A DNA stretch of 63,713 nucleotides, filler included, from Craspedostauros australis (taxonomy: Eukaryota): the NCBI GenBank assembly GCA_030167865.1. It is 15 parts of 15 records of this genome, joined end to end, with 100 filler letters (N's around TTAATTAATTAA, not from the genome) between each part and the next. Parts side by side here need not be neighbours in the genome. Positions count along the whole stretch, not along the records: positions 27,477 to 45,490 come from JALAGF010001058.1; 14 more parts are not named here. One strand, given 5' to 3'. A program made the position numbers and the translations under genes. Position 1 is the first letter of the stretch; each line of letters opens with the position of its first letter. The notes beneath the pieces were generated by a model. The model saw nothing but the letters and a program-made list of their open reading frames with translations. It searched no databases and was not told the origin of the DNA. Positions 27,936-35,522 of this stretch are shown piece after piece.

Positions 27936-28996
27936 GAGTGAGTGAAGCATGGCAGATGCAGAATGGATGCAGAGCTGATGACACCGCGAGGGTACGATGG
28001 TGATGCAGGTGCGCGCATCCAGAAGTTGCCAAAAGGGAATAATGCCACATGTGGTTGTGACGGATGGCTCTACTCCAGAGAGTATACAGGCATGGTATCA
28101 TTCGAGACCCAGGGAGTCCAGGAGTTTAACCTTCGACCAAGATACATGTTATACGCATGATGCAATACATCCGAGTACTCGCAGGTGCCATGAGCTATGC
28201 ACAGCGTGCGACATGGTGCACGACTACTATAGAGTAGTTGATTCAGTCAAGAACAGTTCGAAATCGTCGTTCCCAGCGTGCAGCTTCGTGACCAGAGTCC
28301 GCACACCAGCAACGATGCATCGCCCTCGCCGAGCGTGAGTCAGATGTATGGTACGCGCGGTAGTATTGCCATAGTCGTACATATTATACCACACAACCCA
28401 AGGGAAACATCTGGACCACACGCGACAAGGTGACGGTCTCATGGACGCTGGTGGCATTGTTGTTGTCGGTATTATTCCTCCAGCCCTGCTTCTTCGAAAT
28501 TGTGCCGTCCTAGTCTCTCTTGGGGAGGCTTGTGTGTAGTATCATAATATTATACCATACAATCTACAAGTGAAATATATGATATAACCTAATAGGTCAT
28601 ACTCGCATGCCACGTGCTCCACCATGCTGGTGTGCGGAACGCGACGCGCTAACTCATTCTCTCTCTCTCTCTCTCTATCTAGACATTTATCTTTAGCCTG
28701 CATGGTTGAGCGGCGAGTGGATTGGATTGGACTGAACCGATTGAATTTCTGGACAACGAAAAACGCACGATAAAGTGGTCTGGATACTCACACGTTGTGT
28801 GGAAGCTTCCGATCATGATGCTCGTGACACATCAACGCTCGTGAGAACAGAACGCATGTGCGCTTCTCAAGAAAATCGTGACACTTCGAGAAATCGAAAT
28901 CGACAACCAACCAACCCCCCAATCCTCCCACAATACCGATCACAAGCCAGATTCCCACCACCATTGTCAGCACCAGCACCAGCACCAGCACTCAAG

Positions 28997-30151
28997 ATGC
29001 CTTCCCCCAAGCACGCAGCCTTCTACGATGAAGACAATTTCCCTGTCCCTGGGACAAGAGTAATCATCTCAAAAGCAGGGAGGCTCCCTGCAAAGGGAAT
29101 CGTGGTTGGGTACACCAAGCACAAGATGAAGGTCCACTGCACGCAGGGGAATGCAGAGATACGCACTGGGCGGACAGTAATCATCGGTCTCGGTGGGCTT
29201 TACCCCTTGTCCAAGCCAGAATACAAGAGCGCTAGCATTGATCCGTTCGAAGTGATGAGCATCGCAATCGCGGATGGCCAGTGCTTCGTGCCTGGTGAGG
29301 ACGGTCGGTGGACCGAGACCTACAATGAGGGACGGCACCAGGGCGCTGCTCTGGAATCTTTTCCATACTTCAAAGTCAAGGAGGACCGCGTGGAAGACAT
29401 CAAGGCCCGAGCTCAGGTCGCTCGAACAGTCGAAAGAGGCCACAGATTGCTTGCGGACTATCGCGCGGCGCAGAGAAATGCTCTCAAGTCTTGCCCTCCC
29501 ATCCAGCGCCATCCGCACGCCGAATGGATCTCCACGTTTCCCAGCCACACCAGAACGACGGAACCGAAACCAATCAACACGGAGGCCGCACATTTATCCG
29601 CCAAGATGCAAGTTCCGAAGGACCTCTCCAACAAGAAGCAGGAGAAACAATACATCGCGGATAGCGGCAGCGAGTACGAACAAGATACTGACACCGAAGC
29701 GTCGCCGTCAGTAATAGAAAAGAAGCGCGCACGCCGAAAGCGCACCGAGGATCCCAAGCCTCCGCCAAGGGAGATTTCTCTTCCCAGCCGCCGCCTGCGC
29801 AGTAACAGCCGCGACAGCGGAGCCATGGAAGAGGCCAGGGTCGTCTCTAATCAATCTTTGATAACCGACACCAGCCACACCAGGAGGATGGATGAGGAAG
29901 AGTTTCCGGTCGACCTATTCATTAGCTCAGATGAGGAGATCAAGAGCATGCTGCAATCCGACTACGCAGCCAGGGGCTCGATCACGACCTTGGCGGCGTG
30001 CCTCACAAGAGCTGGTGTCCCGACGGTCAATCGCTACCACATCATGTCGTTAGCCCAACATATCAACGACGAGATGCAGCAGATGAATTGTCCACGCCCG
30101 AGAAGTGCGAAACGATCCCACAAACGCCGCCGAACACGTCGAAGTGCGTGA
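28997..30151 (+). CDS. Hypothetical protein with N-terminal KOW/SH3-like segment and basic C-terminus
   Basis: Intronless ORF. PGTRVIISKAGRLPAKGIVVGYTKHKMKV resembles a KOW-type beta barrel. NLS-like KKRARRKR and KRSHKRRRTRRS. Flanks are AT-rich. Confidence 0.6.
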   Translation: MPSPKHAAFYDEDNFPVPGTRVIISKAGRLPAKGIVVGYTKHKMKVHCTQGNAEIRTGRTVIIGLGGLYPLSKPEYKSASIDPFEVMSIAIADGQCFVPGEDGRWTETYNEGRHQGAALESFPYFKVKEDRVEDIKARAQVARTVERGHRLLADYRAAQRNALKSCPPIQRHPHAEWISTFPSHTRTTEPKPINTEAAHLSAKMQVPKDLSNKKQEKQYIADSGSEYEQDTDTEASPSVIEKKRARRKRTEDPKPPPREISLPSRRLRSNSRDSGAMEEARVVSNQSLITDTSHTRRMDEEEFPVDLFISSDEEIKSMLQSDYAARGSITTLAACLTRAGVPTVNRYHIMSLAQHINDEMQQMNCPRPRSAKRSHKRRRTRRSA

Positions 30152-30714: not shown

Positions 30715-31536
30715 TCAGGATGACGCGTTGCGGTGTGCATGTTGCTGCTGCTGCTGCTGCTGCTGGGTGAGATTGGAGTTGGAAGCTGCCCCAATGTCGC
30801 TGTTCGGAGCAGTCGGCACCAATTCCTCCATCATCTTGGAACCATCGTCGGAGTTCACAATGTGCGATTCCAAGTTGGAAACGAAGCTGAGGAAGCTGGA
30901 ATCATGCAGCAAGCGGGTGACGTGGGACATGACGCAATGATTGTGTTGCTGCTTGTTTGGGCGATGCTGTCGCGTGATAACGGTATTCTCGCGACTCGAC
31001 GATGAAGGCACAGCCAACGACCGCTTCGGTGGATTGTGTCGCAAGAAAGCTGCCGAGAAGCCATGGCATTCTTGCCGAGAGCGAAAGCGCATCACCATGG
31101 CGCGCGGTTGCCGCTGTTGCGACGAATTGGAGACGAGCAAGATGCAGTCGCCGCGTTGGATCATGGTCGTTTTGTCTGCTGGTTTCGTGGTGCTCTTGCC
31201 GCCATCATCATGTTGGTCGTCGTTGCCATTGTTGTTGTCGTTGTTCAGCGTGAACTTTTGGCGCAGCGCCGGGATGACGATGCAGTTTCTTCTTGGCGCC
31301 ACGCTCAGGCATGGCCTTCTTCTGTTGCCATCATCAAGGACACCATTCTCATCGTCTGCCAGGGGCGTCTGTTGCTGCCATCCATGACTCTCGGTGAAGC
31401 GGAAGATATCGACTTCCCAGCCTCGCGACTTTTCTTCGCGCATCGTCGTCATGTTACCGCCGCTGTTTTCGTTGCAATGAATGCAGTTGTTCACGTTGTG
31501 CACGTATTCGTTGTGAAGAACAGACATGGTCGTCAT
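30715..31536 (-). CDS. Rec114/PHS1-like meiotic recombination protein (PH-like domain plus C-terminal helix motif)
   Basis: N-terminal WEVDIFRF..GW, beta-rich core ending RAMVMRFRSRQECHGFSAAF, a disordered linker, then VTRLLHDSSFLSFVSNLESHI resembling the Rec114/PHS1 C-terminal motif. Confidence 0.55.
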   Translation of the reverse strand: MTTMSVLHNEYVHNVNNCIHCNENSGGNMTTMREEKSRGWEVDIFRFTESHGWQQQTPLADDENGVLDDGNRRRPCLSVAPRRNCIVIPALRQKFTLNNDNNNGNDDQHDDGGKSTTKPADKTTMIQRGDCILLVSNSSQQRQPRAMVMRFRSRQECHGFSAAFLRHNPPKRSLAVPSSSSRENTVITRQHRPNKQQHNHCVMSHVTRLLHDSSFLSFVSNLESHIVNSDDGSKMMEELVPTAPNSDIGAASNSNLTQQQQQQQQHAHRNASS

Positions 31537-31856: not shown

Positions 31857-32929
31857 TCTTCCTTCGGCATCGCTTCAACTCCCTCACTTCAACTCGGCAC
31901 ACACTCAGGACAGCACCGTTGGCAGGGTGTCGCTGCCAGAGTGGACCTTCGTGCCGATTCGCTTTGTCCCGTGTCGCTCCTCTCTTGTGTCTTCCTCCTT
32001 TCTCCGTGATGACGCCAACGGATGCAACAAGAAGACGAATGGCGCCTGCGCTTCCTCTGATTTCTCAAGGAACGCAGGAACAAGTGACAATTCGCTTCTC
32101 CCAAAGATGCGCCATCTGCCAAAGATCGGTGTTCGTTTCGGCTTCTCTCTAAAATCCTGCACAAACTTGTATTCGAGTGGGTCGATTTTCCCTTTTCAAA
32201 ACGTTGGTTTTTTCGAATGTACGATTTCATGAACGAAGAACGGATATTGAGAAAAATGGTGTAGCGAGGCAAGACTCCCCGGAGCACTGTGGAGACAGAG
32301 CACTATTGCGTGTTCATTCGAGGCATTCACACGGATTAAACGTAGGCCATAGAAATAAATCATATTTTTTACCTTGCTTGCCCTGCGCCACGACGGTGAA
32401 AAGCTGTTTTGTGTGTCGGTCTCGATTCGTGTTGCACGCCACTCTTGTGGAACCCGTTGGGACGGCTCCACCTTCCACTCCTTGAAGCTTGCAGCTTCGA
32501 GGATTCGGTCTCAGTTGTGCTTCAACCTTCACCCTGGGGATATGTAGAAAGAGAGAGGAGCAGATCACACGTTCTCGTCAACGTGCTGAGGTTGCCATCG
32601 TTGCAGCAACCATGTTGATTTGGATGAAATATGGATGTTTTATATTTGGTCCATCCGTCCATCAGAACGCCACAGCTTCTGTCGTTTCGATTCATCGAGT
32701 TTCGAGGAACAACGATGACGCAGATCGAATCGTTTTCGGGATCGAACACAAACACACAGAACGACGCAGCGCAACGCACAACGCAACGCACAACACAAAA
32801 TTGATTCAGAAGCGCACCAACAAAGTCACAAATCGCCGCAAATAGTCACAATCACATTCATACTCGTAGCTCGTATAATACCAGTATTGGCATAGAAGAG
32901 GAGGAAGAGGCACCGAAAGAGAGCGGATC

Positions 32930-34183
32930 ATGTGCAACGACTGCATCAAACGTAGAATCAGCGCCAGCGGCGGCAGCAACGATGGAGGCAATTCGTCGAC
33001 GCCCGTCTTTGACATGGTGGTATCCTGCAAGGGGCGCAGCAAAACGCTGTGCGTCACGACAGCGACAACTCCAAGCGCTGTCCACGCAATGGCCTTGCGG
33101 CATCTTGGACTGGATTCCGCAACCAGCAGTGTCAAGCTGGTGCTGAAGGGCAAGAGGCTGGATCCCACCGACGCAGCGACGCCCCTCTTCACAAAGCAAC
33201 CGAAGAAGACGCCGCGCCTCATGGCACTGGTCACGCCGCTTCAAGTGGCCAACGAAATCGCCGACAAGCAATCGGATCCCACGATCCGCGGCTTCGACAA
33301 GGAGGCCGAACGCACGCAGCAGCAGCACAAGGCCAACGCACGCAGCAGCAAGCAGCACTGGGGCTCCAACACGGCGCAAGATCGGCAGTACCGCTTCGTG
33401 CAGATCGAGGCATGCACGTGGCATTCCTTCGGACATCGGCCGACCGAATCGACGCCGCATGCCTTCGAAGCGTTCGCGCTGTTGGAGAAGCTGTCGACGG
33501 ATCCCGGAATGGTTGCCATCATGCGAGAACGCGAGCTCGTCGTCAACACGTTGGGCGAGATGGATCCCGTCGACGATCGGCTCATGCAAAAGAAGCAGCA
33601 GCAGGGCGGGTGCCTGCTGGGGTACAACACCAACCATGGTCTGCGCATCGACATCAAGCTGCGCACGGATGACCTGGCCTCGTTGCGCCCGTATCATGAA
33701 CTCGCGGCGACGTTGATTCACGAGCTGTCGCACAATTGGGTCGGCGAGCACAATCTGCTGTTTTGGACCAACTACGCGCAGATGCGAGCTGAGTATCTGT
33801 ACATGCATCGCAATTTGCAAACCTCCTTGTTGTACCGGGTGCAAGGCAAGACGACGGCGCAGATCGCGGGGTGGTCCAAGGAAGCGCTGCAGAACATTCC
33901 CGAAAGCATCCTCAACGAGCTGACACGAGAAATGGCACAGCACGGATTGCATCCTCGCATGATCGAGAATGCAATTCGTGTGCGATGCGCTGAGTTGGAA
34001 CGCGAGAACAAGATGCCACCGATTTCAGGTGGTCAGCGTTTGGGAGGTGGTGGTGCTGCTGCTGCTGACAATGTCAATGCCAATGCTGCAGTATCGACCA
34101 ACCAAGCCATGTCCGCAAGGGAACGAGCATTGGCAGCCGCAGAACGACGCGCGAGGGAGCAGAGGGAGAGGTCAAACAAATGA
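32930..34183 (+). CDS. Ubiquitin-like plus WLM (Wss1-like) zinc metallopeptidase
   Basis: UBL-like VKLVLKGKRLD. WLM core LEKLSTDPGMVAIM..LGEMDP..LLGYNTNHG..IKLRTDD..TLIHELSHNWVGEHNLLFW (HExxH). GGQRLGG (SHP-like) and RERALAAAERR tail. Confidence 0.92.
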   Translation: MCNDCIKRRISASGGSNDGGNSSTPVFDMVVSCKGRSKTLCVTTATTPSAVHAMALRHLGLDSATSSVKLVLKGKRLDPTDAATPLFTKQPKKTPRLMALVTPLQVANEIADKQSDPTIRGFDKEAERTQQQHKANARSSKQHWGSNTAQDRQYRFVQIEACTWHSFGHRPTESTPHAFEAFALLEKLSTDPGMVAIMRERELVVNTLGEMDPVDDRLMQKKQQQGGCLLGYNTNHGLRIDIKLRTDDLASLRPYHELAATLIHELSHNWVGEHNLLFWTNYAQMRAEYLYMHRNLQTSLLYRVQGKTTAQIAGWSKEALQNIPESILNELTREMAQHGLHPRMIENAIRVRCAELERENKMPPISGGQRLGGGGAAAADNVNANAAVSTNQAMSARERALAAAERRAREQRERSNK

Positions 34184-34530: not shown

Positions 34531-35522
34531 TTACTTCGACAAGTGGACACCCATCTCGACCACGAACTTGCTGAAGCCATCCTTCTGCCCACGACCAAAG
34601 ATCTCCAGATGATTCATGATGGGACACTGGCGCCCGCAGTTCTGCTGGGTGAATTGCACCGTCGATGACGCGCCAAGGTACTTGCCGGTGTCGACGTGCT
34701 GGAACTGCACGTGCTTTTCGCGCTGCCAGTGCTCGCCATCGCAGACGACCATCCAATCATCGCCGGCGTCGCCGCGTCCGTCACCCTCCCCGTAGGCCGT
34801 GACCTCCTGCTGCCGGCTCAGCGGCGATCGCTGTCCGTGCGAGTGCAGATTGCGCATCGTGTTGAGGTGGGTGAGGCGGATGGAGGATCCGCATCGGATG
34901 GGCGTTCCGGGTCCGTCCTGGCAGGCGCTGGCGACGTCGGAGCGGTCAGAATTGGGCGCGCGGATGAGCCAGAGGGCGTTTGTGGTGGTGGGGTTGGAGA
35001 CGGCCGTGACGATCTGCTGACCGCTGCCACCGCCCAAGCTCTTGGCTTCGCTGTTCAGGAAGTACGAATCGTGCTTCTTCATTCCGCTTTCCACGTGCGT
35101 CATCTTGACAGCGGACCCGCAGGTGACGAAGCCATCGTCTATTTGTGTCATCGAACGGATATATGGTCGTAGAGTATGGTCATCGTATCGCATTGGCAAT
35201 GCCAGGTGGGGGAGCGCGGTTAGAGTAGTGCATTGGTGGGGTGATGTCCGCGCAGTCAAGCGTTCGCGATGGCGAGCGGTGAGATAGGAGTGGGCAAATG
35301 AAATAGGTGATCGAACGATTTTACAAGGAGTATGTACCATCGCTTCGTCTCTCTTCCTGCCTGACTCAAGAATGCAATGCGGCAAGTGCATGGGCACAGT
35401 ACACAGTGCGCAGATGGACAGATCATGTGCACACAACAGCCACAAAGTTCGTTGCAACACTCACCGTCGGCCAGGATTCCAACCGCGAGGGAAAAGAGGG
35501 TGGTGATGCTCAGTGTCTTCAT
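34531..35522 (-). CDS. SDF2: Stromal cell-derived factor 2-like ER protein (MIR domains), 2 exons
   Basis: Exon 1 is a signal peptide (MKTLSITTLFSLAVGILAD, donor G|GTGAG). Exon 2 from 35138 reads VTCGSAVKMTH..GGGSGQQIVTA..IRCGSSIRLTHLNTMRNLHSH..SPLSRQQEVTAYG..GDAGDDW..FQHVDTGKYL. Confidence 0.92.

Follow-up and report, generated by a model that had tools for sequence, protein, structure and literature searches.

Does the open reading frame on the minus strand at positions 30715-31536 encode a diatom member of the Rec114/PHS1 family, the accessory factors of Spo11? The frame lies in the part of the window (the whole stretch of 63,713 nucleotides of Craspedostauros australis DNA analysed here) that comes from contig C1058 (JALAGF010001058.1) of the genome. 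Translation gave an intronless frame of 273 aa from an ATG to a stop codon, free of internal stops and enclosed in a 293-codon stop-to-stop frame of the same strand; the same register on the plus strand was interrupted by stops. The protein of about 270 aa described in the initial annotation was thus found, and both segments quoted from it were located exactly, VMRFRSxxECxxF at residues 148-160 and VTRLLHDSSFLSFVSNLESHI at residues 206-226. The W..RF motif, which had been placed at the start of the protein, is present, but at residues 40-47, with five residues between W and R and behind an Asn-rich leader. Met4 (31527) is the likelier start codon over Met1, since both the paralogue described below and the closest relative, P0002, start at its equivalent.

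The leader (residues 1-39, 31420..31536) is weakly conserved and predicted to be disordered (pLDDT 39-64, low column occupancy). The AlphaFold model, the family alignment and structure matches place a PH domain at residues 40-168 (31033..31419); it is built from seven strands and one helix, and two of its loops carry low-complexity insertions. The linker that follows (residues 169-194, 30955..31032) is Ser/Pro-rich and predicted to be disordered (pLDDT about 50-66), in line with the low-complexity linker noted earlier. The terminal helix of the initial annotation is better described as a predicted helix-turn-helix (residues 195-211 and 213-228; whole module 195-228, 30853..30954, pLDDT above 90), after which come a third helix at residues 230-239 (30820..30849; D231-G232 turn, L/M236) and a Gln-rich disordered tail of residues 240-273 with the stop codon (30715..30819).

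Homologues were found by each type of search: 13 among 246 candidates with a word-based search, 44 among 4,021 candidates with a profile, and, counting the query itself, 110 at E<=0.001 when phmmer was run against 1.84 billion representatives. This family of about 110 proteins is mostly unnamed. The only rows that carry a taxon name, Cylindrotheca fusiformis, C. closterium and Bacillariaceae sp., are all diatoms, and in a quick tree the gene sits together with all three in a branch of 57 rows (SH-aLRT 100), which makes it likely that the gene comes from a pennate diatom. The codon-position GC of the frame is 0.53/0.42/0.69. The existence of these family proteins, the codon-position GC and the purifying selection seen against the paralogue (below) together show that the frame is a real gene beyond chance.

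The family alignment (A4) has 135 rows: of 141 proteins, seven were left out, namely P0013 and P0141 (fusions or repeats) and P0071, P0114, P0134, P0139 and P0140 (fragments), and the paralogue was added. P0133 was retained, and is probably a false member judging from its very long branch. In P0013 (428 aa), the PH half of the family is followed by an unrelated C-terminal part, which matches NAGLU weakly; the protein is either a chimeric assembly or a real fusion. Conservation in the alignment is concentrated in residues 40-168 and in residues 202-239, and the linker between these two blocks varies from 13 to 116 residues (median 31). Conserved positions of the PH domain are W40, R46, W53, R128, F151, C157, F160, the D162 position and N168; R128 is found in 134/135 rows, F151 in 134/135 and F160 in 133/135. 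In the C-terminal block, F215 (codon at 30892-30894) is kept in 130/135 rows and E223 in 125/135. All of R128, F151, F160, F215 and E223 occur together in 121 of the 135 rows, so that the two halves of the protein co-occur. The three marker residues of the extra helix behind the module are present in 116/135.

The initial annotation had foreseen that simple searches would miss a protein of this kind, and they did. The Pfam scan found no family for the query at E<=10, and no Rec114/PHS1-type family appeared when 13 aligned members were scanned with HMMER, nor among the best five families per protein for 97 further relatives. Eight of these 97 relatives gave weak matches, below the cut-off, to other PH-like models (best PH_35, E 1.3e-4). 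Neither phmmer nor a profile sequence search of solved structures matched any solved REC114 chain (0, 0 and 1 irrelevant match), and a search with the 135-row alignment returned seven known proteins of 7,994 scored, giving no link to named Rec114 sequences. The Pfam models PF15165, PF25349 and PF03525 are lineage-specific profiles; as stated in the accessible part of 10.1101/2022.12.16.520760, Rec114 orthologues are typically less than 10% identical.

We next turn to the predicted fold. In the AlphaFold2 model of the query, the seven strands and helix are joined by a linker of low confidence to three C-terminal helices; 109 residues have a pLDDT >=90, and the core pLDDT is about 90; the model of a compact relative of 162 aa had the same layout (mean pLDDT 87.7). 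When compared with 48,161 chains by VIA-align, the query model matched mouse REC114 (6nxf_A) at rank 1 (Z 9.9, rmsd 3.5, 104 aligned, 16% identity). For the compact relative, 6nxf_A came at rank 2 (Z 10.4, rmsd 2.9, 97 aligned, 20% identity), after CARM1-N (Z 10.5). The identity to REC114 was the highest among the listed rows in both rankings, while its Z-scores were tied within 1 Z with those of Dcp1, Homer EVH1, RanBD and CARM1-N for both models. The Foldseek comparison proposed in the initial annotation gave a mixed answer. REC114 was matched, at rank 15 for the query (yet with the best TM-score and rmsd among the matches listed) and at rank 5 for the relative, where no match reached E<=0.001; by E-value, however, RanBD or EVH1 came first for both. 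Both fold lists are taken up by matches to the PH domain. The PH domain that had been predicted is thus borne out by two models and by REC114 at ranks 1 and 2. As modelled, the fold is that of an EVH1/RanBD/CARM1-type PH domain, a group to which REC114 also belongs. Since REC114 ties with EVH1, Dcp1 and CARM1, the fold alone does not name the family.

More specific evidence comes from the C-terminal module. Numbered residues of the Mei4-binding module of yeast and mouse are given in the available sections of Liu et al. (10.1101/2023.01.18.524603) and Daccache et al. (10.1101/2022.12.16.520760). Anchored on F215, the query matches 10 of these 12 positions in exact spacing, as the claim of a Rec114-type C-terminal motif would have it. 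Yeast I402, L406, F411, I412, V415, V418, E419 and L422 correspond without gaps to V206, L210, F215, L216, V219, L222, E223 and I226, and mouse F230 and F243 to H205 and F218. At least 9 of the 12 positions are matched in 115/135 rows, against 25 of 27,000 shuffles, and 10 of 12 were reached by 4 of 27,000 shuffles; these rarities are overstated, as the residue classes were set after sight of the aligned family and helical periodicity is lost on shuffling. Of the remaining 103 open reading frames of the window, none reached 9 of 12. The two unmatched yeast positions, K405 and M425, are matched in 0/135 and 4/135 rows, and K405 is described in the available text of 10.1101/2023.01.18.524603 as a less conserved position. 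The same text places yeast F411 directly after the turn between two helices; F215 is located directly after the turn between two predicted helices. It also describes the C-terminal domain of mouse REC114 as acidic and weakly DNA-binding. The net charge over residues 200-240 of the diatom protein is -4, which is also the family median. S/T-Q sites are absent from the linker of the query, and 44/135 relatives have one. We consider residues 195-228 a putative equivalent of SSM7, a predicted dimerisation and Mei4-binding module; the match of positions is strong but not blind.

The PH domain carries a further spacing of this kind. In the portion of Nore et al. (PMC9671922) available, R24, V97, R99, C102, L104 and R117 of mouse REC114 bind TOPOVIBL, and this surface is said to differ in yeast. 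In the diatom protein, I126, R128, C131 and L133 keep the spacing of V97, R99, C102 and L104 within a strand of the form I-x-R-x-x-C-x-L (residues 126-133, 31138..31161), the register being set by eye. The strict pattern is found in 47/135 rows and in 72 of 20,000 shuffles. By the same visual register, R46 is a candidate counterpart of R24, and R117 has no clear counterpart.

Language-model features point in the same direction. In the ESM Atlas, the top four rows for the query were REC114-like or PH_PHS1 clusters (0.90/0.87/0.86/0.86; top 183 features). For the C. closterium relative the top four were again REC114-like/PH_PHS1 (0.93/0.91/0.91/0.90; 180-192 shared features). For these two family members, REC114-like, PH_PHS1 and Meiotic_rec114 clusters stood above all other families; Dcp1 and EVH1 clusters scored 0.76-0.78, and separate diatom Dcp1 clusters exist. 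These scores should be read with the recognition value of the query, 1742, which is below the level at which a high score is a strong one, and with the fact that just 15% of the members of its top cluster carry PF15165. The first structure row for the C. closterium relative was REC114, at a TM of 0.39, below the bar for naming. The 10 of 12 Mei4-binding positions in exact spacing in the C-terminal helix-turn-helix, the spacing of the TOPOVIBL strand and the two Atlas queries topped by Rec114/PHS1 clusters lead us to the assignment that the gene is very probably a diatom orthologue of Rec114/PHS1. The proposal made from the DNA, that of an unannotated Rec114/PHS1 gene, is in this sense upheld by fold, module spacing and Atlas clusters.

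Compared with mouse REC114 (6NXF, 7QWV; PF15165), the diatom protein shares the order of PH domain, linker and C-terminal helices, the F230/F240/F243 spacing, in a register set by eye that of V97/R99/C102/L104, and a net acidic C-terminal module. It differs in its low identity over the structural match (16-20%), in having no Pfam match, in its short linker (median 31) and in the helix added after SSM7. Similarities to plant PHS1 (PF25349; At1g10710) were seen by eye as W-x-[IV]-x-x-x-R-F in strand 1 and R-F...F(+9) where the PH domain ends; over residues 206-226, the Arabidopsis sequence in the available part of PMC9957857 aligns by eye without gaps, with 6/21 identities, D-S-S-F and a Glu at +8. 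The Atlas scores to PHS1 were 0.86-0.91. Plant PHS1, however, is longer (about 350 aa), its linker is long, and little sequence follows SSM7. With S. cerevisiae Rec114 and S. pombe Rec7 (PF03525), the likeness lies in 8 of the 10 tested yeast SSM7 positions, F411 and E419 included, whereas the diatom protein has no equivalents of K405 and M425, no strongly basic DNA-binding face and few S/T-Q sites.

The genome contains a second copy of the gene, intact and 77% identical to the window copy, at G000:C1131:37218-38054 inside a contig of 58.7 kb. When the 9.9-kb flanks of both copies were compared, the coding sequence alone aligned (one blastn match of 862 nt, 82.6%), the similarity fading at the stop codon and, on the upstream side, within about 85 bases. 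The gene neighbours of the two copies differ. Next to the window copy and divergent from it, a WLM (Wss1-like) metalloprotease is encoded at 32879-34183 (+), with an N-terminus that gave a weak ubiquitin-like match; this gene has no close second copy in the genome (next match 36%). The two copies are sisters in the quick tree (SH-aLRT 99). Since only coding sequence aligns, the WLM neighbour is single-copy and the copies are sisters, the data fit a recent single-gene duplication. The dS between the copies is 0.26, with dN/dS of 0.34 over 135 core codons and 0.47 over the other 131; the paralogues are under purifying selection. The metagenome loci of two relatives (from 77 pattern matches) have unrelated neighbours, so that synteny does not decide between the copies as to which is the ancestral one. 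About 560 bases separate the end of the window copy from a member of a repeat family with 45 matches, which, as a guess, may have moved this copy.

Some other features deserve a record. The frame at 28745-30151 (+), of 468 codons, converges on the Rec114-like gene and belongs to a family with 45 genome matches, many of them inside frames of 500-1,900 codons. The L041 frame of this family presumably starts like the end of a copia RNase H, although Pfam gave no match, and the window frame may be an uncharacterised extra retrotransposon domain, here standing alone. A MIR-domain protein, which we take to be SDF2-like, is encoded at 34531-35460 (-). Beside the paralogue, a frame of 1,480 codons (L032 5460-9899, -) fuses DUF1800 and DUF1501, which are mostly bacterial neighbours. 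The frame at L018 3-2414 (+), presumably SMC-like, contains an intron-like, stop-free in-frame stretch of about 60 codons, and two overlapping frames at L025 2-1160 (+), which we assume to resemble a DDE transposase, adjoin a stretch shared with contigs C65 and C66.

What would such a protein do? We consider it likely, with slightly less assurance than the orthology itself, that the gene encodes a non-catalytic Rec114/PHS1 adaptor which aids Spo11 in meiotic break formation. By analogy with yeast and mouse, the C-terminal helices of two Rec114 copies would enclose the N-terminal helix of a single Mei4-like protein; F215 would face Mei4, and E223 would form a salt bridge with a basic Mei4 residue. 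Meiotic chromosome axes would be the site where the resulting trimer assembles. Through its Arg128 face, the PH domain would hold a short helix belonging to the Spo11 core complex (in mouse, TOPOVIBL), and this contact would set the timing, place and number of breaks. Direct DNA binding by the C-terminal module is expected to be weak because the module is net acidic, like that of mouse. The second, intact paralogue could fill one or both of the Rec114 slots of the trimer.

The genome contains Spo11/TopoVIA-family genes of two kinds. Each of the two is found on three contigs with equal scores (C1122/C4214/C4215 and C3181/C3482/C5037), which reflects either assembly redundancy or a real triplication. 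Profile searches of the genome with PF13971 (Mei4), PF25349 and PF15165 gave 0 matches; the positive controls likewise gave none, and this result is hence uninformative. Two short degenerate patterns for the N-terminal motif of Mei4 matched the genome 2 times against 4 for the control and 27 times against 23, that is, at chance level. Inspection of 2/2 and 25/27 of these matches revealed no Mei4 candidate at the start of a plausible gene. Among the runs examined for expression, none recorded as RNA contains the gene. In one presumed RNA run, X1, three contigs match the window copy exactly, whereas the paralogue is matched by short repeats only; this informs on neither life stage nor silence.

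It is worth considering other interpretations of these results. The protein might be an unrelated diatom adaptor of the PH/EVH1 clan (Dcp1-, RanBD-, CARM1-N- or PP4R3-like) whose resemblance to SSM7 arose by convergence. The tied fold scores, and the eight relatives whose weak Pfam matches go to other PH-like models and none to Rec114 models, would agree with this idea; the CARM1 N-terminal, Dcp1/EVH1 and RanBD domains indeed share the fold, and mouse REC114, too, has CARM1-N as its nearest neighbour in structure. An SSM7-type C-terminal module is not known in CARM1-N, Dcp1/EVH1 or RanBD proteins. The Atlas scores moreover separate Rec114/PHS1 from Dcp1/EVH1, for which diatoms have clusters of their own, and convergence would require that two separate Rec114-specific spacings, and the order of the domains as well, arose by coincidence. 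We regard convergence as very improbable. Hardly more probable, in our judgement, is that the gene is a true Rec114/PHS1 orthologue no longer needed for breaks, with a later role in pairing or repair or a non-meiotic one. Orthology alone is no proof of a break function, since Arabidopsis PHS1 is a true orthologue and yet dispensable for breaks (available text of 10.1101/2022.12.16.520760 and PMC9957857). The presumed RNA coverage of the window copy, the absence of the gene among the sex markers M1-M4 in the accessible part of PMC12618581 (tubby-like, lectin-like, SIG7 and multi-pass membrane) and the failure to find Mei4 would suit such a loss of function, although the last came from profile and pattern searches with no working positive control. 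The Phe facing Mei4, the Glu and the PH-domain Arg are nevertheless kept across nearly all rows, which implies that both interfaces are still in use, and no part of the PH domain is missing, whereas that of Arabidopsis PHS1 was modelled as incomplete in the accessible portion of 10.1101/2022.12.16.520760. We therefore retain the reading of a Rec114/PHS1 adaptor in break formation.

The second copy, in turn, could be a divergent allele, a homeologue, part of a contaminating genome or a redundant copy on its way to loss. Parts of the assembly are fragmented and redundant, as the three equal-scoring contigs per Spo11-type gene illustrate, and the dN/dS between the copies indicates moderate constraint at most. 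Such origins nevertheless appear unlikely, given the alignment restricted to coding sequence, the different neighbours, the WLM gene with no close counterpart, the intact state of the copy inside a long contig and the sister position of the two copies. A recent duplication remains our preferred explanation. Two Rec114 paralogues per genome are also known from Caenorhabditis, where, in the text of PMC9278955 that is accessible, the pair DSB-1/DSB-2 is predicted to form a mixed trimer, and their extra helix after SSM7 (10.1101/2023.01.18.524603, accessible text) is a further likeness. In nematodes the duplication dates far back (1.4-2.0 substitutions per site; PMC9278955, same portion), whereas that of the diatom is an independent and young event (77% identical, dS about 0.26).

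Full-text literature searches did not return any description of Rec114 from a diatom, although stramenopile rows could be present in Kumar et al. 2010, in subscription papers or in supplements. A paper on the meiotic toolkit of diatoms (PMC4647503) lists Spo11 genes alone for break formation, and rec11, prd, phs1 and mer2 do not occur in its main text. None of the four searched terms occurs in three supplements of PMC12618581, nor does rec114 in PMC8027222, and in PMC12678776 Rec114 appears in the references only. In the parts of the texts available, PMC9665070 surveys REC114 in metazoans and PMC5695089 names fungi, plants, mouse and worm. Likewise within the accessible text, REC114 was not found in 18/18 chrysophyte transcriptomes (PMC6339481), in Symbiodiniaceae (PMC7299967) or in the rhizarian Fisculla, for which the authors suggested a loss in the ancestor of SAR (PMC12096724). 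New here are the second, intact and non-syntenic Rec114 paralogue and the conserved extra C-terminal helix. The wider picture, in which diatom Rec114 was duplicated independently and recently to give a trimer of two different Rec114 subunits, with a conserved extra helix, and in which the SAR loss is a failure of detection, is offered as a tentative idea that we hold to be rather doubtful as a whole.

The diatom protein adds to a system already known, and no new mechanism is involved. It could serve as bait for the Mei4, Mer2 and TOPOVIBL of diatoms, as a candidate marker by which sex might be recognised in field samples, and as a knockout target in genetically tractable diatoms, and the young pair of paralogues offers a natural test of the change from a homodimeric to a heterodimeric slot. 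If the assignment is true, the reported absences of REC114 in SAR can be search failures, and the Rec114-Mei4 layer of break control would reach a fourth eukaryotic supergroup.
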